Shown here: positions 6,901 to 48,473 of the stretch, piece after piece
How the letters are laid out: each line of letters opens with the position of its first letter
Numbering within the stretch: position 1 is the first letter of the stretch
NCBI GenBank assembly: GCA_017610205.1
Contig: JAFCCL010000009.1
Coordinates: forward strand, 1-64,000
DNA length: 64,000 nucleotides
Reading direction: 5' to 3'
DNA from: Candidatus Iainarchaeum sp.
GTDB taxonomy: Archaea; Iainarchaeota; Iainarchaeia; Iainarchaeales; GCA-2688035
Position numbers and translations under genes: made by a program
The notes under the pieces: model-generated
What the model saw: only the letters and a program-made list of their open reading frames with translations
The model's database searches: none
Told to the model about the DNA's origin: nothing

Positions 6901-9900
6901 GATTACTGCTGAAAAGACAGGGTATAAGGGAGCAGAGCTTGAGGAAAAAATTGACTCAAGCATTTTGACTGTTACACCGCCTGAAATAAATGAAAAGCTT
7001 GATGTTTTGCTGACAGAGGTTGAAAAGCAGATTTGGTTCAACAACCAGACTGTAACAGATTTGGTGATTTCAAAGCTAACGTTCAGCAGCGACTTTGAAG
7101 GCCTTGTTTCTTTTGAGTGGGATGAGGATTATATTGGTGAAGGAATTAATGCTGATACAGACATGAATGTGTTCCTGTTGATTGGATTAACAGAACAGGG
7201 AACTCTTGTGGAAACACCTGTAAAGTTGGAGGGTTCTTTGTCAATTTATTTGCTTAGTGCAGAATTGCAGGAAACCTTTGTGGAAAATTTGCCCATAGAA
7301 ATAAGAATAGGGCTTGGAGGAGAAGCAGACAGTGACGATTGCATTGAAATTGTTCCGGTAAAGTGGGATATTACAACATCTGCAGACGGAGCAATAACTG
7401 AAGAATTTTCAATAAAGAACAATTGTACTGTTGAAAATCAGGAAATTGCCCTTTCAAAACTTGAAGCCAAAGTAATTAATGGAAGCAGCGATTCACTTGG
7501 CCAGTTCAAAATAAGCAGTGATGATTTGGAAATTTCTTCAATAGTAATTGGAGAAGAATACACTTCACTTGCAGACCTGTTGCCGGTTGGGTTTGAAGGA
7601 GAACTTCAGATAGAATTTGTTCCAACTTCAACAATTGAATCAGGAACAGCAAAGCCAAAAATTGAATTCAAGGCAGTGCATCCAATAGTTGAAGGCGAGG
7701 AAAAAATTTCAGTAAAGCTTCCTGTTGAAATAAGTGTAAGCAATCTTGAAAAATGCATTGAGGTTATTGCAGACGAACCAATTGAGGTTGAAACAACTCC
7801 AATGAACACCGGATTTGGACAGTATGGAAATTATGGCGGAAGCTATAATCCAGGTTATCAGGGCGGTTACGGTGGCTACGGAGGATACAGCAGCATTCCA
7901 GGAGTTGGTGGAGGATATAGCAATTCTGGTTACGGGGGAATGACAGGCGGTTACGGAGGAAGCAGTTATGGCAGAAGCAGTGGTTATTATGGCGGAAGTG
8001 CATATCCTTACTCTAATTTTAGTTCACCTTATTACACAAACTATTATGATACTGACCATGATAATTCCTGGAAATACGGCCTTGGAGAAAACAGTTTTAT
8101 TGTCAAAAACAATTGTTCAGAGGCAGTTGAAATAGACATTGATGTTCCTGCACAAATCAGGGTAGACGAAGAAAATTTTGAGATTTTGCCAAATTCAGAT
8201 ACTAGAGTAAGGGTTGAATCAGGATACAGAATGGGCAAATATGAAGTTGATATTATGGCAAAAAGAAAAGGAAGCCTTGATAAGGCTTTGAAAATTGAGT
8301 CACTTGACGTTATTGTAAGAAGAGCAGGAGAAATGGACGAGGAATGCCTTCAGCTTAGCACAAACAAAATAAAGCTCAACAATTTTATAGGCAAGCCAGT
8401 AAAAACAGAAATATACAATTACTGTTATGATGTAGGAGTAAGGCTTCCAAGCGGCGGCAATATAATAGACTTTACCTGCAAGGTTGCAGGACAGCCGCAG
8501 AACACTTACAGGTTTGAAGGAAAAGAGGAAACAACTGCTTACTTCCAATACCAACAGTATGGCTACAATGACCCTTTTGCACAGCCAAGCTCTTACATAA
8601 ATCAGCCTCCTGGAAACTATGGGGGGGAAACTTTCCTTCCAACAGGGCCTTATGGCCCAAGCTATGGAAATGCCATTAGTTCAAGCCAGGGATACAATTA
8701 CCCTTATGGAAGCAGCCCTTACGGCAGCAACAACTGGGCTCAAAACCAGGTTGGAGGCTACACAGGCAGGTGTGAATTGATTGACTCTGTTTACGTTACA
8801 GATGAACACACAAGCGGAATGGACGATGGAAAAACAATCCAGACAGTAGAATTTGAAATAAAGCCTGCGTTAAATTATAGAAAAATGTTATGCGAATTCC
8901 AGGGCCAGATGCCGTTTCAAAGCATTTTTGGACTAAGAGTAATGCTAAGCCAGGCTTATTACAGGGTTTATGTTGATGCCTCAGCAAATGTCAAATACTA
9001 CAATCCGTTTGGAAGTGCAACAAACAAGTATTTCCACGTGACTTTGGAGGATATGTGGGGAATTGGCGACACACTTGACGAATGCATGCGCAATGCAGGC
9101 ATTGCAGGAATATCTGCCCAAAGGCTTCAAAAATGCAGGGAAGCAGGAAGCACTGCACCAATAATCTCGGTTGTGAATACCGCTGGTCTTGATTTTTCAA
9201 GAAAAGGATACCAAAAAGGCTTTGTTCCACAGGGCTTGTTTAATGCAAATGATGTTTATGAATATACTGCAGACCCTGATGTTTTGAATATTCCACCTGC
9301 TTCAGGAAAGGCAAGCATTGTTGAAATAATTCCGCGCGAAATAGTGCACGAAAGCGGTGTAAGAATTTCGTTTGAGACAGTTAAAACAGAGTGTCCTGCA
9401 CCATACCCTGGGGGAAATTGGACAATTAAAATGAACATTGACAGGTCAGGCATGGATGAAAGCATTGGCTGTGCAATAATTAACAACCAAATTGCCATAA
9501 AGGTTTCAAGGCCAATGTTTTGGGAAAGCCCAAAAGAAACAATTTTACCGGTAAGAGTTAACGTGCTTAACAGAAATGAAAGCATAGACAGTGTAGACCC
9601 AACCACCTGCAGCACGCCGGGTTCGATTACACCAACAAGTGTAAGGTGTGCAGCAGGCGGAGTATCAGGAAAAGGAACTAATGAAAAGTATGGCTTTGAC
9701 AGGCTTCCGTTTGACTGGATCTGGAACGGAATTGACATACAGCAATGTGATGAAAAAACAAACGGCGGAAAGGAAAGCTTTTGTGACGGAGTACAGTTCT
9801 CAATTGAATTGAACAAAAAGGCAGAAAAAGTAAAAGAGTTTGTCACAGAAAACAAGGCAATTATTGACGATTACGCAGAATTCACAGGCGTTGCAAAGGA

Positions 9901-34842: not shown

Positions 34843-37800
34843 ATGAAATTCGGAATTTTAATTTTGTGTTTATTTGCCTTGCTTTTGTTAAGCAATGCTA
34901 ATGCAGTATATGAGCTATGCGATTCTGTTGAAAGAGTTTCTGACCTAAACAACGTTACCTTTACATGCTATCTCACCACTTCAAAAATTGAATTTACACA
35001 GGATGACATAGACGACTTTTGGGAAGAAATACTTGCCGATGAAGATTATGTCAGTGAAAATCTGAAAATAGTTGAGTGGAAAATTGAAAGTGTTGTAGTA
35101 CAGGTTGCTGATGACATCAGATTTATTGAACCGCCTGGAATGGATATGCCGTGGGACATTATACTTACAGGAGATTCTAATACTACTCACGATTTTAATC
35201 AATCCGCTTCAACGCCTCTAAGGCCAGCAAACCAAACCGCAATCAAGAAAAGAATTGGCGGACTTCAAGAATTCTTTATTTCATTTGCACCACTTGGCGA
35301 AAGGAGAGGAGTAAGAAATATTACACTTGAAAAGCCAATAGAAGCGCTTGGTGTTTACATTTCAGGAAGTACTATAAAAAAAATGGATATAGATATTGAA
35401 GGAACACTTTCTCTTTCAGGCGGATACATTGAAAACTTGGATTTGTTAAAAGCAAAAAGCATTATCCTTTCAAACACAGCATATCTTCAAAATATTAATT
35501 CAATTAAAGCAGAAAATATTTCGCTGGAAAGCAACAGCTATATTAGAACTGTTGGAAGTTTTGATGAAACAGCAATAAAAATTGAAAACAGCGAAACAGG
35601 ACTTATTGTAAAAGGCAAAAGCTATATTGAAAACGTAAATGGATATATTGAAGTTGATTCTGACATTTATCTCGAAGAAGAATCAGGAATTAAAAACTTA
35701 TCATATACACCAAGCGAAACAATACAACTGATTCAAGCAGACAATCTTACATTAAAGGATGAAAGCTACATTCTTGGAATTGGGGGAAAGCCAGGGGAGA
35801 TAATACTTAGCGGAACACTTAGCCTTGAAAACAGCAAAATTATTGGCAGAGGCAACAACAAGCCATCAGGAGTAAAGGTAAATGGTATTTTAATGTCTGA
35901 CAATTCACTATTGCAGGGGTTTGAAGGCAATATAGAAGTTGAAGGAAAGGAAACATTTGTACTTGAAAGCGGAAGCATTATTGGAGAAGTTTTAGGAATA
36001 ATAAACAGCTGCAGCAAACTTTCAATGGATGGTAATGAAACAAAAATAAGGTTTTTGGAAAACAGTCCAAAGGAAGTTAAGGCAAATGGCATTGACCTAA
36101 ACAACGATGCAAAAATAGAATGCATTGGCGAAGCAGACTGCAATTATTTTTATATTTACCAAAGTTGTGACGTAGAACCAACAACAAATCTTGAAGTAAC
36201 AGAAAGCCAGTCAGGAAATGTCCCTTTTACTATTGGGTTTGTTGGAGAATGCAATGCAGAAGGAACACCAATAACATGCACAATTGATTTTGGAGACGGT
36301 TCAGGCTCAGAAGTGTTTGACACAAACGCAAGCCATACATATTTAACAGCAGGCTCTTTCAAAGCAGTGCTCACAGGGCAAACAACAGAAATGTCTACAA
36401 CAAGTGAAAAAACAATTGTGGTGGTTGAAGCAGGGGTAACCCCTCCAACAATTGAAGAAGTACAGGCTTCTCTTTCAGTACAAACTGTTCAAAATGGTGG
36501 CGAAGTAAATATAATACTGGAGTGCGATGACACTATTACGTCCTTTTCAATTGAAAACAATCTTGGACTTCCAGCAGTAACAACAATACCGAAACAGTGC
36601 CCGGCAACACTTGGACCTTTCAAAATACCTGAAACAACAGCCGCTGGAACTTACAGTTTTGTTGTAAAAGGAGCAACAAAAAATGGAACCGAATTTGCAC
36701 AAACACTGACAATTGCTGTTGAAACAAGGCCTCTTATTCCATGGCTTCCATTTGAGTTGGACGGCTTAATGATTTATGGAATTATTGGCATTGTTGGAAT
36801 TATTGCAGTAGTTGTAATAATAGTAATTATCAAAAAGAAAAAAGGAACCGGCAAAAAGAATGAAAAGAAAAACGAAGAAGATGAAAATAACATGGAAATA
36901 ACTGCCAAAGAACTTGGACAAAATCAGACACAAGTGCAATCAGGCAAAGAAAGACCACCATGGATGGTTAAAGAAACCGAAGACGAAGAGGAATACAAAG
37001 AAAAAACAGTGCAGGAAACAAAACCAGAACCAAAAGTGCAGAAAACAAAACCACAAGAAAAAGCAAAGCCAACAGAACAAAAACTAACAGAAATAAAACC
37101 TGCTAAACCAGTAGTTGGAAAAAAAGTTGAAATAAAACCAGTAGAAAAAAAAGGCGGGTTTTTGGGATTTTTAAAAAAGAAAAAAAAGCCTCCGGTTACA
37201 AAAGAAATTGAAGGAATTAAAGAACCAATGAAAATGCAGACAGCAACAAAACCAACAGCGGTAAAAAACCCGAAGAAAAAGCCAATAGTCGAAACTATTG
37301 CCAAACCAAAACCAATTGAAAAAATAAAACCAACGACAGAAGCAACAAAACCAATTGAAGTACCAAAACCAACCATTAAAAAAATTATTGAACCAAAACC
37401 AATTGAATCAACAAAACCAATTCAAGAAGAAACAAAACAAGTTGAATCAACAAAACCAATTCAAGAAGAAACAAAACAAGTTGAATCAACAAAACCAATT
37501 CAAGAAGAAACAAAACAAGTTGAATCAACAAAACCAAAATTTGAACAGGCGGAATCAACGCAGGTTGAATTGTCAAAACCTGCAGAAAAAAAGCCAGTGG
37601 AAGAAAAAGAAAGCCCTGGCTTTGCCAGACCAAAAATGACAAAGCCAGAGGACAAAAACCCTTCAAAAAGGTTTGAAAATTTGGTTGAACTAGTAAAAGG
37701 AACCGGCGGAAAAGTAAACGAAAAAACTGTTGAAATAAAGAAACCTGCAGTTGAAAGAAAGCCTGCAATACCTGTTTCAGAAAAACAGGCTTTGAAGCCA

Positions 37801-37977
37801 AACAAGCTAAAATCCGAAGAGAAGCATTATGCAACAGAAAAAAAGCAAGTTGGTGGAGAAATAAAAGAAACCGGAATGCAGGAAGCAGAAGACAAAAGTT
37901 GGTTTAAAAGAAAGAAAAAGGCTGTTGAAAAAAAGGAAGAAAAGCCCAAAGTACCTTCGTGGCTTAAGAAAAACTAA
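34843..37977 (+). CDS. Single-pass surface protein: signal peptide, beta-solenoid-like repeats, PKD domain, TM helix, long K/P/E-rich tail
   Basis: IDFGDGS...SHTYLTAGSF PKD signature; TM GIIGIVGIIAVVVIIVII followed by KKKK. Confidence 0.8.
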   Translation: MKFGILILCLFALLLLSNANAVYELCDSVERVSDLNNVTFTCYLTTSKIEFTQDDIDDFWEEILADEDYVSENLKIVEWKIESVVVQVADDIRFIEPPGMDMPWDIILTGDSNTTHDFNQSASTPLRPANQTAIKKRIGGLQEFFISFAPLGERRGVRNITLEKPIEALGVYISGSTIKKMDIDIEGTLSLSGGYIENLDLLKAKSIILSNTAYLQNINSIKAENISLESNSYIRTVGSFDETAIKIENSETGLIVKGKSYIENVNGYIEVDSDIYLEEESGIKNLSYTPSETIQLIQADNLTLKDESYILGIGGKPGEIILSGTLSLENSKIIGRGNNKPSGVKVNGILMSDNSLLQGFEGNIEVEGKETFVLESGSIIGEVLGIINSCSKLSMDGNETKIRFLENSPKEVKANGIDLNNDAKIECIGEADCNYFYIYQSCDVEPTTNLEVTESQSGNVPFTIGFVGECNAEGTPITCTIDFGDGSGSEVFDTNASHTYLTAGSFKAVLTGQTTEMSTTSEKTIVVVEAGVTPPTIEEVQASLSVQTVQNGGEVNIILECDDTITSFSIENNLGLPAVTTIPKQCPATLGPFKIPETTAAGTYSFVVKGATKNGTEFAQTLTIAVETRPLIPWLPFELDGLMIYGIIGIVGIIAVVVIIVIIKKKKGTGKKNEKKNEEDENNMEITAKELGQNQTQVQSGKERPPWMVKETEDEEEYKEKTVQETKPEPKVQKTKPQEKAKPTEQKLTEIKPAKPVVGKKVEIKPVEKKGGFLGFLKKKKKPPVTKEIEGIKEPMKMQTATKPTAVKNPKKKPIVETIAKPKPIEKIKPTTEATKPIEVPKPTIKKIIEPKPIESTKPIQEETKQVESTKPIQEETKQVESTKPIQEETKQVESTKPKFEQAESTQVELSKPAEKKPVEEKESPGFARPKMTKPEDKNPSKRFENLVELVKGTGGKVNEKTVEIKKPAVERKPAIPVSEKQALKPNKLKSEEKHYATEKKQVGGEIKETGMQEAEDKSWFKRKKKAVEKKEEKPKVPSWLKKN
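37403..37537 (+). repeat. Intragenic 39-bp tandem repeat, ~3.5 copies (ESTKPIQEETKQV)
   Basis: Copies start at 37403, 37442, 37481 and 37520 (partial). Confidence 0.95.
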
Positions 37978-38970: not shown

Positions 38971-39031
38971 TGCCTGCAAAAAAATAAGCAAAAGCAAGCT
39001 TTTTATACAAGAAAATTCATTAAATTGCAGA

Positions 39032-40120
39032 ATGGAACTAAACCTTGATGCAATTGAATTTGGAAAAATGCAGATTATTGCAGCAGTTTTAATATTTCTT
39101 TCAACATTGCTGGTTGCATGCATTTTTGGAATGACAGGGATTGGACTAAACGATTTGCTTACATTCAAATTTAACATAGTGCTTGAAAAAATTCTTGCAA
39201 ACTTGCCTACAATTATTTTGTTCTTTCTAGTGCTCTCATTGCCTGTTGCGCTAATAACAGTTTTTGCAAAAAGAATGGAAAAAATAAACCTTATAATTGT
39301 GGCAACGATTTCAAGCTTTCTGGCACTGATAATTGCAATGGTCCTGTTTCCAGCACTGCAAAGTTTCTGGATAGCAGGAATCTTCTACATAATTGCGGTC
39401 TTTTTGGCAATTGAAGAAGCTTTTACAAAATTCAAAGAAATAAAAAAAAGAATTATTGCAAGGGCAAGCTGGTCAACTATGGGAAAGGTTGCTTCGGTTA
39501 TTTCGATTAGCTTGGTTGTTCTGCTCCTTGCAAACATTGTTCCACAACAGGAGGAATACCTTGAAAAAGTTGATGACTTCAGCGCAGGAATTGTGGAAAC
39601 AGTAATGCCAAGCACTGGAGGAAATTCAGGAATTACCTCTGTTTTGGTTGATGCAATAGTGGATACACAGCTTGCTACTGTTAACGCCTTATTGAACAAC
39701 AGTGTTTACACAAAGCTTAGGGAAAAAACAGATCCTGATGTAATTCTTTTTGTTGCCACTGCAGACACTACAAGCGAATACTTTAAAGGCCCTGAATTCA
39801 GGAAAGAAATAGAAAAGCAAATAAACCAAACAGGAACAGGAGTAATGCAGGAAATCAGTTTGGTGAAAATAATAAGAGAGCAATTTCCAGCCATTGAAAC
39901 CATTGAAAAAACCGTTCCGCTTGGAGTTATAATGGGGCTTTTGCACGCACTGGCAATTGCAGGAATCTTTTCAATGCTGGCAATGTTTTTATGCAAGCCA
40001 ACAGCAGCAATTTACGGAATAATAGCAGAAAAAACATTGACAGCTTTACTGCCACAGGAACAGCAAAAAGCCCCACCACAGCAAACAGCCAAAGCCCCAC
40101 CACAGCAAACAGTTAAATAA
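39032..40120 (+). CDS. Multi-pass membrane protein of unknown function
   Basis: About 6 TM helices with a large soluble loop; start moved to ATG 39032 to avoid overlapping map. Confidence 0.75.
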   Translation: MELNLDAIEFGKMQIIAAVLIFLSTLLVACIFGMTGIGLNDLLTFKFNIVLEKILANLPTIILFFLVLSLPVALITVFAKRMEKINLIIVATISSFLALIIAMVLFPALQSFWIAGIFYIIAVFLAIEEAFTKFKEIKKRIIARASWSTMGKVASVISISLVVLLLANIVPQQEEYLEKVDDFSAGIVETVMPSTGGNSGITSVLVDAIVDTQLATVNALLNNSVYTKLREKTDPDVILFVATADTTSEYFKGPEFRKEIEKQINQTGTGVMQEISLVKIIREQFPAIETIEKTVPLGVIMGLLHALAIAGIFSMLAMFLCKPTAAIYGIIAEKTLTALLPQEQQKAPPQQTAKAPPQQTVK

Positions 40121-40153
40121 ACCGTCTAGGAAAAAATACTATATTCTTTGTTT

Positions 40154-40225
40154 GCTCCCGTCTTTCAACGGATAGGAAACTGGCTTGCGGAGCCAGCAAT
40201 CCGGGTTCAATTCCCGGCGGGGGCA
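40154..40225 (+). tRNA. tRNA-Arg(GCG)
   Basis: Acceptor GCTCCCG/CGGGGGC; anticodon arm CTGGC-TTGCGGA-GCCAG; T arm CCGGG-TTCAATT-CCCGG. Confidence 0.93.
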
Positions 40226-40292
40226 TCAGCTCTCCAATTCCGTGCCCTAAGGCCCTTCTTTAAAAAGGCTTCGGTTGAGGAGAGTGAAAAGT

Positions 40293-41465
40293 ATGGAAGA
40301 AGATTTCCATAACTACAAGAAAAGGCTAGAAGCCCAAATAAGGATTCTGAACGAGTCAGATGCATCCAAAGCCAACAGGCAAAAGATTCTGGAATACTAC
40401 AACTATATGCAGGCACGCGGACTTTCCTCCGCAAGGATGTTCAGGTCAATGATAACCCTCAGACAGTTTGCCTGCAGATTCAACAAACAACTTGGCAATG
40501 TAACAGAAAAGGAAATGCAGGCCTATGTTGCATCAAGAAGAGAAGAGGGAAGAAAAACTTCAAGCATTGAAACCGATGTAAAAATACTCAAAGTCTTTTA
40601 CAAATGGATTAATGGAGGAGAATACCCTGCCTGTATCAAAAACATTGTGTACCAAAAGGACAAAGGAAAAAACCTTCCAGAGGAAATGCTGAACGAAGAA
40701 GAGGTCAAAAAGCTTGTTAAGCATGCCCCCGGCGAAAAAGCAAAAGCCCTAATCTCACTGCTAGGGGAATCTGGCGCAAGAATAGGTGAAATTGGAACAC
40801 TGTGCATGAAAAACATAGAATTTGACGAGCACGGGTGTAAAATAACATTGAACGGCAAAACTGGCATGAGAAGAATAAGAGTAGTCAAATGCGCATCCTA
40901 TCTTCTGGAATGGATCAACGTGCACCCAGACTCCAATAATCCAAATGCCCCCATTTGGATTAATATGCAAATCAAACCCTACAAAAGACTATGCTACAAA
41001 TCACTTGAAAAAATTGTCAAAAGTGCAGCATACCGTGCTGGAATAAAAAAACCAGTAAACCCACACCAATTCAGACACAGCAGGGCAACATATCTTTCCC
41101 AATTCCTCACAGAAGCTCAAATGAAAGAATACTTTGACTGGTGCCAGGACAGCAGTATGGCTGCAAGATACATTCACCTTTCAGGCAAACAAGTTGACGA
41201 CGCAATCCTCAAACTCAATGGCATAATCAAAGAAGAACCAAAAGAAGACAATTGCCCGGAAATATATAACCCAGATCAAACAGACTCAGACTTTGATGGA
41301 TTTGGAGATGTTTGCGAACCAAAAATAATTTTAGGGTATGGAGGAGACAAATTGATCGGACAAGACTACAATATCACTTACTCAATACTACCACAGCCGA
41401 CTAAAAAGTTAATTGGACAAGATTACAATATACTACTTGGGTGGAATTGGTACTACACAAACTAA
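40293..41465 (+). CDS. Tyrosine recombinase/integrase with a foreign C-terminal extension (thrombospondin type 3-like repeat)
   Basis: GARIGE, GKTG, HQFRH, W and ARYIH catalytic set; tail DNCPEIYNPDQTDSDFDGFGDVCE. Confidence 0.88.
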   Translation: MEEDFHNYKKRLEAQIRILNESDASKANRQKILEYYNYMQARGLSSARMFRSMITLRQFACRFNKQLGNVTEKEMQAYVASRREEGRKTSSIETDVKILKVFYKWINGGEYPACIKNIVYQKDKGKNLPEEMLNEEEVKKLVKHAPGEKAKALISLLGESGARIGEIGTLCMKNIEFDEHGCKITLNGKTGMRRIRVVKCASYLLEWINVHPDSNNPNAPIWINMQIKPYKRLCYKSLEKIVKSAAYRAGIKKPVNPHQFRHSRATYLSQFLTEAQMKEYFDWCQDSSMAARYIHLSGKQVDDAILKLNGIIKEEPKEDNCPEIYNPDQTDSDFDGFGDVCEPKIILGYGGDKLIGQDYNITYSILPQPTKKLIGQDYNILLGWNWYYTN

Positions 41466-41514
41466 ACTAAATAAGCAGTTTTAAATAGTAGTTTAGCTCT
41501 TTTAAGTTGATTGA

Positions 41515-42000
41515 ATGAATCCTTATGTAAAAAATTTGGGGCCTGTTTTTCTGATTGCTTTGGCGCTTAATGTTGTGTTGAGTTTGAGCCATGCAATTAT
41601 TTTTCAAAATTTCTTCATGAGTGAGTTGATTTTTGCATTTTTGGTATTTTCTGCAGGATTGTTTCTTTTTATAGGAATGTCCCTTGTTTACACCAAGCTT
41701 GGTGGAAAAAAGCCAATCACGGTTTTCTCAATTATTGCAGTTATAATTGCAATAATGGCTTTAACTCTTCGAATGGATTGGCATATTGGATTACTTTTTA
41801 GCGAGCAAAGCTATCTTGTAAACACTTTTTATTTAGAACTTATTTTGCCAATTGGATTAATGATAGTTCTTAGTAAAGGCCTTAAAGAAAACAAATGGGT
41901 TGCCATTACTACAGGCCTAGGATTTGTAATTACTCTATTTTACTATTCTTTTTTCTCAATACTTTTAAAGTATGGCATTTTCATACTTGGCTCATCATAG
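41515..42000 (+). CDS. Membrane protein (~5 TM)
   Basis: Hydrophobic; similar layout to the next ORF. Confidence 0.7.
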   Translation: MNPYVKNLGPVFLIALALNVVLSLSHAIIFQNFFMSELIFAFLVFSAGLFLFIGMSLVYTKLGGKKPITVFSIIAVIIAIMALTLRMDWHIGLLFSEQSYLVNTFYLELILPIGLMIVLSKGLKENKWVAITTGLGFVITLFYYSFFSILLKYGIFILGSS

Positions 42001-42039
42001 CTGACTTTAAATATAAATTTGTTGTTTTAGGTTATTGAA

Positions 42040-42543
42040 ATGCATTCTTATCTGAAAGATTTTGGAAAAGGGTTGTTAGTTGGCTTAGGGGTTAACCTTA
42101 TTTTGACTATTTTGTTTATTAGCATTCTAAATTTTACTGGTTTTATTGAATTTAACTTTTTAACTTCTTTGTTTGCCGAGCCCCTAAGTTTTTTTGAATT
42201 TGCATTCTTGTTTTTTCTTACAGGAACTTTTCTTATAGGCGTATTATTTGTTCTTTTTGAAAAACTTAAAGTGCGGAAACTATTTTTTTGTTTTTTGGGT
42301 TTGCTTGCGGTAATAATTCTAGGCTACTATTTAATCCCCATTACTGAATCATTTTCAGGGCTTTATCTTCTTTTAATTGAGTTTTCTGTGCTTCTGCTAT
42401 TTTGCGGCCTAACATTTTTTCTTTTCAAACAAGCTAAAGGCAACAAAAAATTCGTTTTTATCACGGTTGCACTTTCTTTACTTACGCTAATTTATTATGC
42501 GTTTTTCCTGCTTATATTATCTGCAATGATTTACGGAAGATGA
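42040..42543 (+). CDS. Membrane protein (~5 TM), probable paralog of the preceding gene
   Basis: Y.K..G N-terminus and NK..v.IT...L.YY.FF C-terminal pattern shared. Confidence 0.7.
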   Translation: MHSYLKDFGKGLLVGLGVNLILTILFISILNFTGFIEFNFLTSLFAEPLSFFEFAFLFFLTGTFLIGVLFVLFEKLKVRKLFFCFLGLLAVIILGYYLIPITESFSGLYLLLIEFSVLLLFCGLTFFLFKQAKGNKKFVFITVALSLLTLIYYAFFLLILSAMIYGR

Positions 42544-42653
42544 CACGAAATAAAAATTAATTTTTTCTATTTCTTTCCCAAACCCCTTATCTTTTTGTCC
42601 CCTTTTTGTTTAACAAACAAAGCTCCGGGCTGGCTTTCGCAGGCCGTGTCTAA

Positions 42654-43103
42654 TCATTTTATTTCGTTTGGTCCCATTCCTTCTTTTTTTGTGCTGAAAA
42701 CAAGGCTTGTGTTTGTCCGTGCAATCAATTCGTCGCTAAACATTTTCTGGTTAAATTCATCCAGCTCTTTAGTGTTATGAAATTTTGCTATTAGCACTAG
42801 ATCATAGTCGCCGCTTATTCTGTAAAGTGCTGAAACGTTTGAAGCTTTAGCCCATTTACTGGCTACTGCTTCAAGCCGACCTCGTTCAGCCCGGGCTTTT
42901 ATTACAACGGTTACATCATAGCCAAGCTGATGCAAGTCAAGAACAGGTGTCATGCCCAAAAGGACTTTTTTATGTTTTAGACGCTGCAGCCTACTATTTA
43001 CTGCCGGCGGGGTGATGTCAAGTTTTTCAGCAATCTCTTTCTGCGTTATGTCAGATTTTTTGGAAAGCATACTCAGGATTTTTTTGTCAATTTCATCAAC
43101 CAT
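42654..43103 (-). CDS. Lrp/AsnC family transcriptional regulator
   Basis: DEIDKKILSML...EIAEKLDITPPAVNSRLQRL HTH; ISGDYD in the RAM domain. Confidence 0.92.
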   Translation of the reverse strand: MVDEIDKKILSMLSKKSDITQKEIAEKLDITPPAVNSRLQRLKHKKVLLGMTPVLDLHQLGYDVTVVIKARAERGRLEAVASKWAKASNVSALYRISGDYDLVLIAKFHNTKELDEFNQKMFSDELIARTNTSLVFSTKKEGMGPNEIK

Positions 43104-43375
43104 TGTCCAATCACCTGATAAAAAATTAAATCCAAACCATAAAAACGAAGGATTTATGATTAATTATTAAGCAAAAAAGCGTTTTTAATATAAACTGATT
43201 AACCAATTTGCTTGTTAAATTAACTTTTTAACCGTTTTATTCTTTAATACTTTACTAATTTTACAAGGTTAAAAGGGGAGAAGCGAAATGAATCAACCAT
43301 TTGGTTTAACTTATTTCAACCAAGTTCATATTAATCCTCAGAGGAAAATTATTTTGGGAAAAGAAGGAAGGGGAC

Positions 43376-43885
43376 ATGAAACACGCACTCGAACTTAAAA
43401 AAATATTCAACGGAATAGTCCAAGGCTTTGGATTAAACCACGCACGCGTATACTACACTCTGCTATCAAGCGAAGTAAAAACCACAAAACAACTAATAGA
43501 AGAAACAAACGTAAACCAGGCAACCACCTACGCAGTCCTAAGAGAGCTGCTCAAATGGGAACTAATCAAACACAGCAACACAAACCCAACAACCTATTTT
43601 ATTGACAATCCAATGAAAACCTTCGAACAACAAGTGAAAAAGAAGGAAAAAATAATCAACACCAAAAGAAAGCAACTAGAAAACCTAATAGCCTCTGACC
43701 TAGATGAAACAGAAAAATACCTAATCAAAATAGGAAAAGGCCAGCAAACAAAGCTAGTAAATGTGCTGACAAAAAAAGAAATAACATACCGAGAAGAACT
43801 TGTGAAAATAAGGGAATCACTCGACAAGATGTTAAAAGAGGCGCCGGAAAGAGGAAAATGCCACACTTATTCATTTTATAGATGA
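43376..43885 (+). CDS. TrmB-like winged-helix regulator
   Basis: FGLNHARVYYTLL...TTYAVLRELLKWELI...PTTY TrmB N-terminal pattern. Confidence 0.75.
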   Translation: MKHALELKKIFNGIVQGFGLNHARVYYTLLSSEVKTTKQLIEETNVNQATTYAVLRELLKWELIKHSNTNPTTYFIDNPMKTFEQQVKKKEKIINTKRKQLENLIASDLDETEKYLIKIGKGQQTKLVNVLTKKEITYREELVKIRESLDKMLKEAPERGKCHTYSFYR

Positions 43886-43932
43886 TAAATTTAACATAAA
43901 AAATTTAATTACATGCCTTTTCAACACTTCTT

Positions 43933-44343
43933 ATGAGATTAGATGATTCTACCGAAATAAAAAGTGCAACGCTAATCGATTTGAATAAAGGAAAAGAGTT
44001 GAAACTTTTTGAACGAACAGGATGTAGATGTCACTTCCATAAGGAATTTACTTTCAAAAACTACTTTATCCAACTGCGACTAGACTGGAGTGATATTCGA
44101 AATAATGAACCAACCTTGGACGCGGATATTTGGATTATGAAGGATTACGAGAAAAAATTTTTGAAAAAAGGAGAATGGCATCATACTGAAAGAAAAATTG
44201 ACCCTGAAATGGGAAGAAATATATACAAATTCAGATTCAAAGATTTGGAATTAAGATTAGTATCAAGGAAAACTGTTGCAAAGACTTTCTCTGCTGACGC
44301 TATACTTATAAGGGATTCTGTGGAAGTAGAAAAAAAGAAATAA
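43933..44343 (+). CDS. Hypothetical protein
   Basis: 136-aa ORF in the island; no recognised motif. Confidence 0.55.
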   Translation: MRLDDSTEIKSATLIDLNKGKELKLFERTGCRCHFHKEFTFKNYFIQLRLDWSDIRNNEPTLDADIWIMKDYEKKFLKKGEWHHTERKIDPEMGRNIYKFRFKDLELRLVSRKTVAKTFSADAILIRDSVEVEKKK

Positions 44344-44467
44344 CGAGCTAACAGATAACTTAATTAATCACCTTGCACTATACTGTTTCTGTATAAAAAG
44401 TTCAATCACACCTTTCTGAAGTGGTGAAGGGCATTGGATTTCTAGTTGTTGCCCGGCGGGGGCATGT

Positions 44468-44561
44468 GCCATTGAACCCAAGCAAAATGGCACCGGTTAT
44501 ATTGCAATTTTCCCAAGGCTTTTGCGCGAAGCAGAAAAGGCTTTTCAAATCCCGACAGGCA
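44468..44561. repeat. 94-bp direct repeat, copy 1 (hairpin-rich, contains GCGAAGC)
   Basis: Near-identical to 45073-45166. Confidence 0.95.
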
Positions 44562-44613
44562 ATAGGATATATTTTTATAGTTTTTCAGACATTAAACTTT
44601 TAGAGGCGATTTT

Positions 44614-44826
44614 GTGAAGTACAGAGTTATAGTTAAACATGATGAAGATAATGTATTTGTCGTTACAGTTCCTTCATTACCAGGATGTATTTCCCAGGGC
44701 AAGACAAGAGAAGAGGCCCTGAAAAATATTAAGGATGCAATAGACGGCTATTTGGCAAGCCTTAAAAAACACAATGAACCAATTCCACCAGCAATAGATG
44801 AAGAAGTGGTAGAAGTTTATGCCTAA
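44614..44826 (+). CDS. hicB: HicB-family antitoxin (short form)
   Basis: VPSLPGCISQGKTREEALKNIKDAI motif. Confidence 0.9.
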   Translation: MKYRVIVKHDEDNVFVVTVPSLPGCISQGKTREEALKNIKDAIDGYLASLKKHNEPIPPAIDEEVVEVYA

Positions 44827-45046
44827 GCTTCCGGTTGTTTCTGGCAAAAAAGTTGTAAAGGCACTTGCAAAGTTTGGATTCAAATTAGACCACCAAACAG
44901 GAAGCCATTTGATTCTAAGGCAAAGAAAATACCCTTACCGAAGAGTGAGTATTCCAAACCACAAAGTTATTGCAAAAGGCACACTAAACGAAATCATTAA
45001 AGAAACCGGATTGACAAGAGAGGCCTTCATCAAGGCACTGAAATAG
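44819..45046 (+). CDS. hicA: HicA-family toxin
   Basis: SGKKVVKAL...GF...QTGSH...IPNH...GTLNEI. Confidence 0.9.
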   Translation: MPKLPVVSGKKVVKALAKFGFKLDHQTGSHLILRQRKYPYRRVSIPNHKVIAKGTLNEIIKETGLTREAFIKALK

Positions 45047-45072
45047 TTTTTCAATTCCCAGGTGGAACATAA

Positions 45073-45166
45073 GCCATTGAGCCCAAGCAAAATGGCACCG
45101 GTTATATTGCAATTTTCCCAAGGCTTTTGCGCGAAGCGAAAAAGGCTTTTCAAATCCCGGCAGGCA
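45073..45166. repeat. 94-bp direct repeat, copy 2
   Basis: Near-identical to 44468-44561. Confidence 0.95.
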
Positions 45167-45227
45167 CCCTACTTTTACCAGGAAGAAACAAAAAGGTTTA
45201 TATGCTATACCAACTTATATAGTTACT

Positions 45228-45446
45228 ATGGAAACAACTATTCAGGTTAGTAAGGAGCTTCGCACGGAATTGCAGAACAGAAAGTTTAGCACAAAAGAAA
45301 GCTATGAGAACGTGATTTGGGACTTGATTGAGGACACAGCAGAACTTTCAGAGGAAACAAAAAGAGACATTGCAGAAGCAAGAAAAGAATTCAAGAAAGG
45401 GAAATTTAAAAGCTTGTCCCAGGTAAAAAAAGAGCTGGGTCTGTAA
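45228..45446 (+). CDS. Putative antitoxin (ribbon-helix-helix-like)
   Basis: TTIQVSKELRTEL...ESYENVIWDLI; stop overlaps the RelE start. Confidence 0.75.
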   Translation: METTIQVSKELRTELQNRKFSTKESYENVIWDLIEDTAELSEETKRDIAEARKEFKKGKFKSLSQVKKELGL

Positions 45447-45697
45447 TGCACCAAGTTGTTATTTCCAACAAAGCAGAGTGGCAGCTGAAAAAACTCGAAA
45501 GAAGCTTGCAGGAACGAATCATATCCGCTCTTGAAAGGGCAAGGATTAGACCTGAAGCACACTTCAAAAAACTTGTTGGAGAAGACGCTTACAGCCTAAG
45601 AGTTGGACATTACAGAATAATAGCCGACATTGAAAGAAAAAAACTAATTGTTCTGGTGATAAAAATTGGACACAGAAAAAAAGTTTATAAGAAATAA
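45446..45697 (+). CDS. relE: RelE/ParE-family toxin
   Basis: KKLVGEDAYSLRVGHYRII...VIKIGHRKKVY. Confidence 0.9.
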   Translation: MHQVVISNKAEWQLKKLERSLQERIISALERARIRPEAHFKKLVGEDAYSLRVGHYRIIADIERKKLIVLVIKIGHRKKVYKK

Positions 45698-45757
45698 TTC
45701 AAGAAGAAAACCTGTTTTAGCTGTTCAATTCCAGGCAAGGGCAAAAAACATTTAAAG

Positions 45758-46201
45758 ATGAAAAGAGCAATTGTTATAGAAGAGGTTTTTGAATTGATTG
45801 TAAGAACGTTAAAAAAAGCTGTTAGAGCAGTTGGACTAGTTAGACAAAGGGGCAAAAGCAAAAAGCAAGTTAAGGAAAACCATGAGGCCAAATTTTTAGC
45901 AGCTTTTAAGATAGTAGAAGACAAATGGGTGCAATTTGCAGGACATTACCCTGAAGCTGTTGGAATAATTAGAAAAGACGTTGGTCTTAATTTACAATTT
46001 ATACAAATAGGACACCAGATACACTCTGGTCCATCAATACGATTGCCTGAAGAAAAAAAGCACTTTGCAAACTTTTACGTTGCACTAAAACTTGCAAGAA
46101 CCAAGCTTGGAGAAAAAGAAATTAAGGCTCTTACATTAAGTGCAACAGAAATAAAAGCCTTGGACAAACTTATAGAAAGCTATGCACATTTAGCAAAATA
46201 A
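45758..46201 (+). CDS. Basic hypothetical protein
   Basis: ORF bounded by att-like sequences; start uncertain. Confidence 0.5.
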   Translation: MKRAIVIEEVFELIVRTLKKAVRAVGLVRQRGKSKKQVKENHEAKFLAAFKIVEDKWVQFAGHYPEAVGIIRKDVGLNLQFIQIGHQIHSGPSIRLPEEKKHFANFYVALKLARTKLGEKEIKALTLSATEIKALDKLIESYAHLAK

Positions 46202-46256
46202 ATCCCGACAATAAAAAGGCAACCCTAAAATAGAAGTTTGAACTTATTCAAACCAA

Positions 46257-46547
46257 ATGATTACAAAGGAAGAAATCAGGGATGGGCTTTTGTGCGCTGA
46301 TTGGGCGCTTGTTTCTTTTTTTCTTGTAAAGATGACTCCTTTGGAATTTCTTTCAAGCAGCTTTTTGCAAAACGTTGGAGGAGTAGGACTTTTTTTGGTG
46401 TTTATAATTCTTTTTGAATCGTTTGGAAAAAACATTCTGTGGAAAATAATGGGCAAAAGACACAGGATAAAAAGACAGATTTTTGGATTGGTTGTATTTG
46501 GAATAATAATTGCAGGGTTGTTTGCAATGACCCAGCAAACAGTCTAA
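46257..46547 (+). CDS. Small membrane protein
   Basis: About 3 hydrophobic helices. Confidence 0.6.
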   Translation: MITKEEIRDGLLCADWALVSFFLVKMTPLEFLSSSFLQNVGGVGLFLVFIILFESFGKNILWKIMGKRHRIKRQIFGLVVFGIIIAGLFAMTQQTV

Positions 46548-46607
46548 CTGCATTTTGGGAAATTAAGACAAGATATTAAATGATTTTGCAGGAAGAATTG
46601 TTTTGTA

Positions 46608-46691
46608 GCAGAGATAGGGAAGCGGTCAAACCTGCAGGCCTCAGACGCCTGTCGCTTAGTGCGTTCGGGGGTTCGAATCCTCCTCTCTGCA
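46608..46691 (+). tRNA. tRNA-Leu(CAG)
   Basis: Acceptor GCAGAGA/TCTCTGC; CAGGC-CTCAGAC-GCCTG anticodon arm; long variable arm; TTCGAAT T-loop. Confidence 0.93.
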
Positions 46692-46702
46692 AGGATAAAA
46701 TT

Positions 46703-47380
46703 ATGAAACTGGTACTTTTTGATGTTGACGGAATATTGCTGAAATTCGGAGCTGTTGGCCGTGACTACTGGAAAGTAATTATAAAAAAGCATTTTGGAAT
46801 TGAAACAAACAGGCACAATATTGATATGCAGGGAAAAACAGACAGGGCAATTTTGGCAGAACTCCTTGTGCTTGAAGGAATTAAAGACCCTGAAAGTGAT
46901 AAAAGATTTCTTATAGCATTGAATGATATTGGAAATGTTGTTGCTGAAATAATTAAGGACAAAAAGCTTGAAAAGATTCCAAACGTTGAAAACTTTGTAA
47001 AACAATTAATTCAAGAAAAACACATTGTAGGATTGCTTACAGGAAACACTCGCGAAAAAGCCAGGGCAAAACTTGAAAATGCAGGACTTTGGAAATATTT
47101 CAAAGCAGGGGGTTTTGGTAACAGGAGTCAAAAAAGAAGCGACCTTGTGCAAATAGCTCTTGAAGATGTAAAAGAAAAAACAGGCGTGGAATTTGAAAAA
47201 AAAGATGTTTTCTTAATTGGGGATACTATAAGAGATATTCGGTGTGCAAAAGAAACAGGGGTAAAAATTGTTGCGGTGGCAACAGGAGAGCAGACAGTTC
47301 AATATCTTGAGGAAGAAAAGCCAAATTATCTTTTTGAAAACTTTAATAACTTTGAAAAACTTATAGAAGTGTTTAAATAA
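46703..47380 (+). CDS. HAD-superfamily hydrolase
   Basis: MKLVLFDVDG, LLTGN, IGDTIRD; start corrected to lie downstream of tRNA-Leu. Confidence 0.9.
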   Translation: MKLVLFDVDGILLKFGAVGRDYWKVIIKKHFGIETNRHNIDMQGKTDRAILAELLVLEGIKDPESDKRFLIALNDIGNVVAEIIKDKKLEKIPNVENFVKQLIQEKHIVGLLTGNTREKARAKLENAGLWKYFKAGGFGNRSQKRSDLVQIALEDVKEKTGVEFEKKDVFLIGDTIRDIRCAKETGVKIVAVATGEQTVQYLEEEKPNYLFENFNNFEKLIEVFK

Positions 47381-47453
47381 ATGTTTTTGTAATCCACAAC
47401 GCTTTTTTTGATGCCAATAAACTTTTATAAAGATTGAAACAAATACTTATCTG

Positions 47454-47684
47454 GTGAAAGAAATGGAAAAGCACTTTTCAGCGGTTGTTACCAAAGGCAA
47501 AGTTGCATTTGTGGCATTGTGCCCAGAACTTGGTGTAACAAGTCAGGGAAACAGCGAAAAAACCGCTTTGGCAAATTTGAAAGAAGCAATAGAACTCTAT
47601 TTGGAAGACGAAGACGTTCAAAAAATGCTCAGGAAGAATCCAGCAAAAAAGGCAAAAATTTGTTCAATTGCTATAGGCAGCTGA
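47454..47684 (+). CDS. hicB: HicB-family antitoxin (short form)
   Basis: CPELGVTSQG...ALANLKEAIELYLE. Confidence 0.88.
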   Translation: MKEMEKHFSAVVTKGKVAFVALCPELGVTSQGNSEKTALANLKEAIELYLEDEDVQKMLRKNPAKKAKICSIAIGS

Positions 47685-47694
47685 CTGATTCAAA

Positions 47695-47922
47695 ATGAAA
47701 CTTCCGGTTATTTCAGGAAAACAACTGGTAAAATTTTTGAACAAAGAAGGCTTTGAGGTTGTTAGAAGAAAAGGAAGTCAGGTAAGGCTTAAAAAGAAAA
47801 GTTTGGGAAAAATAATTGTAACAATTGTTCCAATGCATAAAAGGCTTGACCAAGGAACTTTGCTTGGAATATTGAGACAATGCAAAATATCAAAAGAAAA
47901 GATGCAGGAGAATGTGAAATGA
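47695..47922 (+). CDS. hicA: HicA-family toxin with GSH changed to GSQ
   Basis: SGKQLVKFL..GF...RKGSQ...VPMH...GTLLGIL. Confidence 0.85.
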   Translation: MKLPVISGKQLVKFLNKEGFEVVRRKGSQVRLKKKSLGKIIVTIVPMHKRLDQGTLLGILRQCKISKEKMQENVK

Positions 47923-48473
47923 ACGCAATCATAATCCATGGAAGTTTTGGAAGCCCCGAGGAGAATTGGTTTCCATGGCTAAAGGCAGAGCTGGAAAAGG
48001 TTGGTGTTGAAGTTTTTGTACCTGCTTTTCCAACTCCGGAGGGGCAGAATTTGGAGAATTGGCTAAATGTGTTTGAAGAATTTGAAGGGCAGGTAAATGA
48101 GGAAACTGTTTTTGTTGGACACAGTTTGGGTCCTGTGTTTGTATTGAATGTTTTGGAGAAATTGGACAGCCCTGTAAAGGCTGCTTTTTTTGTAGCAGGT
48201 TTTGTTGGAAACCTTGGCAATGCTGAGTTTGATGAGATTAATGCAACGTTTGCAGATAGAATGTTTGACTGGGAGAAGATAAAGGAAAATTGTGGAAAAT
48301 TTTTTGTTTTTTACTCAGACAACGACCCCTATGTTTCAGGAGAGAAGGCTAAAGAACTTGCAAGAAATTTGGGTGTTGAAGCAGAATTGGTTCAGGGAGC
48401 AGGGCACTTTAATGAAAACTCAGGTTATACAAAGTTTGAGCTTTTGCTTGAAAGGATAAAAAGCCTGCTTTAG
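47919..48473 (+). CDS. RBBP9/YdeN-family alpha/beta hydrolase
   Basis: IIHG, NWFPWL, GHSLG nucleophile, SDNDPYV, AGHFN; ATGA overlap with hicA. Confidence 0.9.
   Translation: MNAIIIHGSFGSPEENWFPWLKAELEKVGVEVFVPAFPTPEGQNLENWLNVFEEFEGQVNEETVFVGHSLGPVFVLNVLEKLDSPVKAAFFVAGFVGNLGNAEFDEINATFADRMFDWEKIKENCGKFFVFYSDNDPYVSGEKAKELARNLGVEAELVQGAGHFNENSGYTKFELLLERIKSLL

Follow-up and report, generated by a model that had tools for sequence, protein, structure and literature searches.

Modules bounded by tRNA-Arg tail copies in an Iainarchaeum genome: likely tandem accretion, with a resemblance to integron cassettes

Tail copies and modules behind tRNA-Arg

The window analysed here is a stretch of 64,000 nucleotides (nt) from Candidatus Iainarchaeum sp. 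(positions 1 to 64,000 of contig JAFCCL010000009.1, assembly GCA_017610205.1; the genome is called G000 below), in which a row of small modules follows a tRNA-Arg(GCG) gene and is divided by degenerate copies of the 3' end of that tRNA. We find it likely that the modules have gathered by tandem accretion at the tRNA gene, followed by decay, and that the old part of the row is a fossil. An earlier note on the same DNA had compared the row to the cassette array of an integron, an analogy that is apt for the architecture of the locus and unproven for its mechanism. Successive integration and decay is a known process, and it explains the window without any integron-like capture.

The tRNA gene lies at 40153-40227 on the plus strand (ARAGORN; Rfam tRNA model, 54.2 bits), and its last 21 nt (40205-40225, plus strand) constitute the attachment core, which is also the left border (attL) of the newest island. 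Allowing up to three mismatches, this 21-mer has two matches in the window, at 40205 and 45723, and none in 100 shuffled sequences. The last 14 nt of the tail also match twice, the exact second copy being the right border (attR) of the newest island at 44452-44465 on the plus strand, and again no match was found in 100 shuffles. On the plus strand of 44400-46250 (1.85 kb) there are four ungapped matches of at least 15/21, at 44444, 45049, 45148 and 45723, all in the orientation of the tRNA gene, where 0.037 are expected from the whole-genome rate (55 matches in 2,739,668 positions, both strands, tRNA genes included). In alignments A2 and A3 the stretches 44547-44561 and 45050-45069 fall, position by position, on the intact cores flanking the orthologous hicBA genes of two congeners, G004 and G005, and because of this exact alignment we regard the sites in the window as decayed versions of real junctions.

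The strings that the earlier note had quoted as tail copies are all found where it placed them, and its view that they derive from the tRNA-Arg 3' end and lie at the boundaries of the modules it described agrees with ours. The matches exceed both shuffled sequence and the genome-wide expectation, and five of its six copies are real as judged by shuffles, genome-wide rate and congener alignments. The sixth, the 11-mer AAATCCCGACA at 46200, has no such support: it scores below 13/21 in the tail-match scan, only echoes an 11-nt piece of the decayed core found at 44548, and was rejected as a tail copy since it fails the threshold of 15/21.

Closest to the tRNA lies the newest integrated element, of about 4.25 kb (40228-44451, plus strand), with exact 14-nt direct repeats at both borders. 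It encodes an intact, unsplit tyrosine integrase of 390-396 amino acids (aa; 40275 or 40293 to 41465, plus strand) with SAM-like and catalytic domains (Pfam, 2.6e-18), followed by two membrane open reading frames (ORFs; 41515-42000 and 42040-42543), an Lrp/AsnC regulator (42654-43103, minus strand) and a TrmB-like regulator (43376-43885), both recognised by Pfam, and a 136-aa ORF without assigned function (43933-44343). An in-frame stop codon parts the integrase from tRNA-Arg, and the gene is not split by the integration. By its arrangement alone the island corresponds to what PMC3293823 calls and defines as a pNOB8-type (type II) integrative element.

The integrase has some features of its own. 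In its C-terminal tail (41240-41465) Pfam recognises a calcium-binding repeat similar to thrombospondin type 3 (E = 0.003), and a segment of 19 residues is duplicated there, visible in the DNA as a direct repeat at 41349 and 41406. A paralogue with 47% identity is found directly behind tRNA-Ser(TGA) at 179013-180182 of contig C3 of the same genome, and no copy of the tail of that tRNA with at most three mismatches in 19 nt was found.

Behind the island stand the older modules, all on the plus strand and separated by cores that have decayed to 13-18/21. First comes a gene-less hairpin unit of 97 nt reaching from core to core, U1 (44466-44561), with a hairpin HP1 at 44467-44494, a hairpin like a repetitive extragenic palindrome (REP-like) at about 44515-44545, and a decayed core at 44544-44561, whose aligned counterpart in G004 and G005 is the intact core on the left side of hicBA (A2). 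The antitoxin gene hicB (44614-44826; Pfam HicB_lk_antitox, 2.3e-13) and the toxin gene hicA (44819-45046; HicA_toxin, 4.9e-16) have a DNA identity of 92% and 88% to the core-flanked hicBA of G004 and G005, respectively, and the decayed core to their right (45049-45069, 15/21 in the tail-match scan) aligns with an intact core in G004 and a core with one mismatch in G005 (A3). U2 (45070-45166), a copy of U1, ends in a decayed core at 45148-45166 (15/21). After it come an antitoxin-like ORF (45228-45446) and a RelE/ParE toxin (45446-45697; ParE_toxin, 6e-10), a pair that is 80% identical in DNA to a core-flanked cassette of G005; the partner of the toxin has no significant Pfam match. Both pairs are adjacent small genes matching type II toxin-antitoxin families, HicAB and RelE/ParE. 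The best-kept old core (45723-45743, 18/21) precedes an orphan ORF of 147 aa (45758-46201), the last module before the conserved right flank, which has no Pfam match and no homologue in five congener loci or elsewhere in the genome.

The right flank begins at about 46226 and extends on the plus strand to 46691. It contains a 96-aa membrane ORF (46257-46547), whose protein is 73-96% identical in G002, G004 and G003, and tRNA-Leu(CAG) (46608-46691, ARAGORN), after which a gene for a HAD hydrolase is conserved as well.

Several modules bounded by attachment sites are thus found in one orientation behind one tRNA, most of them without a recombinase, as in an accretion island. We picture its origin as follows. 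The interval between tRNA-Arg(GCG) and tRNA-Leu(CAG) would be an accretion site for integrative elements, and the chromosomal attachment site would reach from the T-loop of tRNA-Arg to its discriminator base. An incoming element would bring its own copy of this stretch and recombine within it, whereby the tRNA would be rebuilt, and the displaced old tail with everything behind it would shift one step downstream. The 4.25-kb element would be the latest arrival in the window, with the hairpin unit, hicBA, the second hairpin unit, relBE and the orphan as its predecessors. In the congeners the arrays at this site are undecayed, and many boundaries are N-terminal stubs left by an integrase gene that has its own attachment site and is split upon integration.

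The locus in congeners and its split integrases

We compared the locus with that of five congeners, G001-G005; the genomes of the relatives derive from metagenomes and have a completeness of 79-92%. The interval from tRNA-Arg to tRNA-Leu is hypervariable in the genus. Its flanks are common to G000-G004, and in these five genomes its interior varies from about 1.5 to 11 kb and differs in content; the contig of G005 starts inside the array, with the left flank outside it. G002 has one hairpin unit with an exact core and then a hydrolase, and represents the empty state in which tRNA-Arg, hairpin unit and core are uninterrupted by the island. No extra core is present in G003 and two are present in G001. 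G004 has a 7.7-kb element followed by hicBA, a methyltransferase-like gene and a PemK pair, with five cores that are exact 15-mers, and in G005 ten cores in 6.5 kb (five exact, two with one mismatch and three with two) bound nine complete cassettes. All that G004 and G005 have in common is hicBA, the site modules and the flank. The comparison of content and order that the earlier note had proposed therefore shows a locus that is far from invariant: among the six congeners both vary between close relatives, as they do in integrons. In a family-wide search the 15-mer with at most one mismatch was found in 11 of 23 genomes (zero for the reversed 15-mer), and only G004 and G005 have more than two copies (five and seven). 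A scan of the genome collection for core plus arm also gave arrays in these two only; every other match was isolated and lay in an unrelated record.

In G004, G005 and G001 some 85 conserved bases rich in A and C stand in front of many cores; they open with a ribosome-binding site and an ATG, and their frame continues into the core. These arms correspond to about 28 codons (24-28) of an N-terminal integrase stub, and the stub ORFs are 43-60 codons long. In G004 the frame through the tRNA-adjacent core stays open into an integrase ORF of 272 aa, and at the far end of the 7.7-kb element, which also carries a terminase-like gene, a ribosome-binding site, an ATG and 24 codons lead into a core in the same frame. 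The same split design is found in G047, of another family, in a 15.9-kb element at tRNA-Ala. In both elements the attachment site (attP) falls within the integrase ORF, which integration divides into an N-terminal and a C-terminal part. Many of the array boundaries are N-terminal stubs of an integrase with the attachment site inside its own gene.

A protein search gave 418 relatives of the split integrase. Among 16 homologue N-termini examined, 11 have peptides that can be read through the genetic code as translated T-loops, and two further ones look unsplit and resemble the stubs. Three members (P0001, P0005 and P0013) match PF00589 only among the integrase models at E up to 10, and PF16795 (Phage_integr_3), which according to PMC8371274 is the domain of the known suicidal integrases, is unmatched in them even at that level. 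The nearest solved structure is XerA, and the SSV1 integrase is absent among the structure matches. Nor is there an IntI-type integrase beside the array: with the NCBIfam model TIGR02249 (IntI) the window integrase scores 54.6 bits and P0001 34.5 bits, far below the cut-off of 265, which bears out the earlier note in that the recombinases are tyrosine integrases other than IntI. The relatives bear DPANN names and not those of thermophiles, and the label DPANN as we use it refers solely to these names. Among 151 sampled genomes of the order, 8 have this family, and so does one of five congeners searched. It is absent from G000, and the assembly of G005, which is 88% complete and has the largest array, contains no matching integrase. 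Scanning viral contigs with the integrase alignment gave no relative, and scanning metagenomes with a 19-mer from the stub gave nine matches, none of them related. In G039 no second copy of a tRNA tail was found, only the tRNA itself. The window integrase belongs to a different family from the integrase whose stubs mark the clean arrays.

Five of the nine cassettes of G005 carry a toxin-antitoxin gene with a Pfam match below 1e-3 (ParE, ParE-like, HicAB, Fic/Doc and ParE); of the other four, one shows a weak match to PIN, one is a methyltransferase and two are without assigned function. Together with the Pfam matches in the window this confirms the cargo rich in toxin-antitoxin genes that the earlier note had described. 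The cassettes are also what lends weight to a different explanation, namely that the genus as a whole has an active integron-like platform, where a tyrosine integrase acting in trans would capture, excise and reorder integrase-less cassettes at the tRNA and at the internal cores, and where pre-core arm, tRNA-Arg core and post-core hairpin would form the attachment module. We consider this rather unlikely. In its favour, at least four cassettes share the same ends (the post-core hairpin to the left and the stub to the right) and differ in cargo (a 91-aa ORF, a methyltransferase, Fic/Doc and a methyltransferase-like gene), and no C-terminal integrase remnant is left in any of the nine, while seven of the nine stubs keep ribosome-binding site, ATG and open frame. 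The stubs are mutually 45-86% identical over the 150-nt windows compared, with near-perfect cores, and should therefore come from several lineages and not from local duplication. A partly deleted version of the Doc cassette, with other neighbours, is present in G001, and hicBA and relBE are adjacent in G000 and separated in G005. The attC sites of integrons are imperfect palindromes that act as folded single-stranded DNA; the module of G005 folds with its core paired to a downstream inverted copy (z = -2.67, one of 200 shuffles being as good).

Against such a platform, the fold is not significant in the module of G004 (z = -0.85), and the hairpin units of the window fold no more stably than shuffles (z = +0.2 to +0.5). 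No circular or free forms of the cassettes were found in the viral or metagenome scans, no cognate integrase was found in G005 and a single one of the five congeners searched has one, the window's own sites have decayed, and deletion by homologous recombination between repeats of 15-130 nt could yield much of the variation. The earlier note had proposed a non-IntI recombinase that captures mini-cassettes at tRNA-derived sites. Of this the tRNA-tail sites and the non-IntI integrases stand, and no excision or capture of a single cassette was seen in the scans. The sites of the window are decayed and are accompanied by an integrase of another family than that of the stubs in clean arrays.

We thus favour accretion at tRNA-Arg with subsequent decay. 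That the newest element is the one nearest to the tRNA is suggested by the decay of the cores in G000, which fits the absence of the split-family integrase there, and the old part of the window is most likely fixed since this genome is without an integrase of the family that built it. We infer the order of events, the entry of some modules as integrase-less mini-elements with help in trans, and the present immobility of the modules in the window. The toxin-antitoxin pairs have probably persisted because their loss is costly. Some observations weigh against this explanation. Six to seven of the nine cassettes in G005 keep the N-terminal stub and none a C-terminal remnant, which fits the entry of mini-elements better than the decay of whole elements. 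The cores of G004 and G005 are better kept than the adjacent cassettes, which are 85-92% identical between the genomes, and this could mean that they are still in use; both arrays lie on metagenome-derived contigs, and a look for public read sets of the locus gave none. Moreover, according to Badel et al. 2020 (PMC7253208) known split integrases show no tandem integration, so that the arrays go beyond a simple prediction from the literature.

Hairpin units and neighbouring features

The two hairpin units of the window are 90-96% identical to each other, 94-110 nt in size, and extend without genes from one core to the next. Their first hairpin has the position of the post-core hairpin in G004 and G005 (A3), and their second half is the REP-like hairpin, which is common in related genomes. 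The search for similar arrays at other tRNAs that the earlier note had suggested did give short units of the same kind. Within G000 they are found behind tRNA-Ala (two identical 95-nt copies on contig C16), tRNA-Leu(TAG) and tRNA-Leu(CAA), and G007 has one at tRNA-Pro. More generally, gene-less units of 66-130 nt are bordered on one side by a tRNA and on the other by an exact or near-exact repeat of its segment from T-loop to discriminator base, also at a tRNA-Gln-like gene (in G000 at C16 89400-89660, minus strand, C10 103540-103710 and C17 89827-89987; at L016 443-650; and at L005 about 2200-2410). They look too small for ordinary double-stranded circles.

Such units could suggest that no site-specific recombination is involved at all, and that local duplication, slippage and homologous recombination among hairpins and tRNA-like stretches have produced the row. 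The near identity of U1 and U2, the identical units behind tRNA-Ala and a circle size of 85-130 bp, which seems too small for a double-stranded recombination substrate, all speak for this. The repeat, however, always spans the T-loop to the discriminator base, at four different tRNAs, and this is the span that tRNA-targeting integrases typically duplicate. Both G000 and G004 have an integrase placed precisely at the tRNA, and the stubs are in frame with integrase genes. We find an origin by duplication alone very improbable, and keep to accretion by integration.

Two hairpin families are dispersed beyond the locus. The first has a conserved 13-nt loop with the consensus GAGYCCAARCGAA and occurs in the window at 44467-44494 and 45072-45099. 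Elsewhere in G000 it is found on C16 (about 89300-89580), C17 (about 3381, 89878 and 121975), C19 (about 96853), C20 (about 7711) and C22 (about 12770). At least four different stems occur; each is self-complementary, and G-T pairs are present in some. When up to two mismatches are allowed the loop gives 36 matches, about a dozen of them clear hairpins, against 11 for a reversed control, and the tandem G-A at the base of the predicted loop recalls a kink-loop. The second is the REP-like intergenic hairpin, with constant flanks TTTTCCCAAGGCTTTT ... AAAAGGCTT around variable complementary centres, seen at 44510-44547 in the window and at L009, L010, L011 and L016 (G007, G014 and G006). Its copies frequently follow one another in tandem at distances of 51-60 nt, and several genomes of the family have the element in abundance. 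We also tried other readings of these elements and rejected them. The units are not pseudo-tRNAs or tRNA halves: ARAGORN and Rfam gave no tRNA there (in 39000-48000 nothing but tRNA scored above the Rfam threshold), and visual inspection shows no 5' strand of the T-stem. Nor do they code for a peptide, as the frame of the ORFs spanning them is not conserved. The 40-nt repeats 51-60 nt apart in the relatives, which have a CRISPR-like look, are in L009-L011 and L016 the REP-like hairpins with their self-complementary variable centres.

Three further features lie in the surroundings. A second pair of a HicB-like gene (DUF7387) and hicA, at 47454-47922 of the window, is not part of the array but lies past tRNA-Leu and the HAD gene, and its position is kept in G005. 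In that genome an ORF of the LAGLIDADG type (L020, 7938-8822) stands beside two separated pieces that match tRNA-Leu(CAG), at 8689-8718 and 8781-8822; ARAGORN called no tRNA at these pieces, and they could belong to an intron-bearing or disrupted tRNA-Leu. Upstream of the locus, at 34843-37977 of the window, a predicted surface protein of 1044 aa has a Lys/Glu-rich tail in which a 13-residue unit is present three times.

Known systems and meaning

Modules flanked by attachment sites and without a recombinase, in tandem with an integrase-bearing element at one and the same site, are known from Streptococcus as cis-mobilisable elements (CIMEs) that spread by accretion and mobilisation. These bacterial elements are many kb long and come from conjugative elements, unlike the units described here, which go down to 95 nt. 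Another parallel is the tycheposons of Prochlorococcus, where, according to bioRxiv 10.1101/2020.12.28.424599, newcomers push older elements further into the island and partial tRNAs are left behind. By arrangement alone the likeness is close, with integration at a tRNA, displacement of older elements by newcomers, and partial tRNA copies and degenerate remnants between modules. The differences are that the host here is an archaeon, that the modules are of 0.1-1 kb with mostly toxin-antitoxin genes, and that many boundaries are split-integrase stubs.

With the SSV-type ('suicidal', type I) integrases, as PMC8371274, PMC7253208 and PMC3293823 present them, the split family shares an attachment site in the ORF and, in G004 and G047, an integration that leaves the C-terminal part beside the tRNA and an N-terminal stub at the opposite border. 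It differs from them in having PF00589 without PF16795, XerA as its nearest structure and relatives with DPANN names, and from the known split integrases of PMC7253208 in that its stubs are stacked at one tRNA. The arrays resemble integrons, and also clusters of attC sites that lack an integrase, some of them archaeal (PMC9668308), in having a proximal site, a stack of small cassettes closed by repeats, much toxin-antitoxin cargo and variable content. They differ in that IntI is missing, the sites are tRNA tails and not attC, at least one cassette seems by eye to have a promoter-like AT box of its own, and the place of attI is taken by a functional tRNA gene.

Neither tandem accretion at tRNA genes nor the splitting of integrase genes is new in itself. 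New compared with the literature that we found is a large integrase family (418 matches) with DPANN names and an internal attachment site, without the Pfam domain of the known suicidal integrases. The stacking of stubs at one tRNA, with up to nine complete cassettes in a row, is also new in this respect, as are cassettes of 0.5-1 kb that retain the attachment module only. In that literature, supplements aside, we found no paper connecting DPANN archaea with split integrases or with stacks of cassettes anchored at a tRNA.

It is possible, and we put it forward tentatively, that the locus represents a tRNA-anchored analogue of integrons in DPANN-like archaea, in which a module of about 150 bp (the initial 24-28 codons of a split integrase gene, the tRNA-Arg core and the post-core hairpin) would serve as a portable cassette end. 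Cassettes of one or two genes without an integrase, mostly toxin-antitoxin pairs, would then be stacked, lost and reordered behind the functional tRNA gene by the integrases of passing elements acting in trans, and the 'suicidal' design would have had a separate origin outside the known thermophile clade. For annotation, short ORFs running through tRNA-tail copies behind a tRNA are to be read as integrase stubs and not as new genes or RNA elements. If the cassettes do move, they would constitute a second and independent route to an integron-like store of genes, in organisms with very small genomes.

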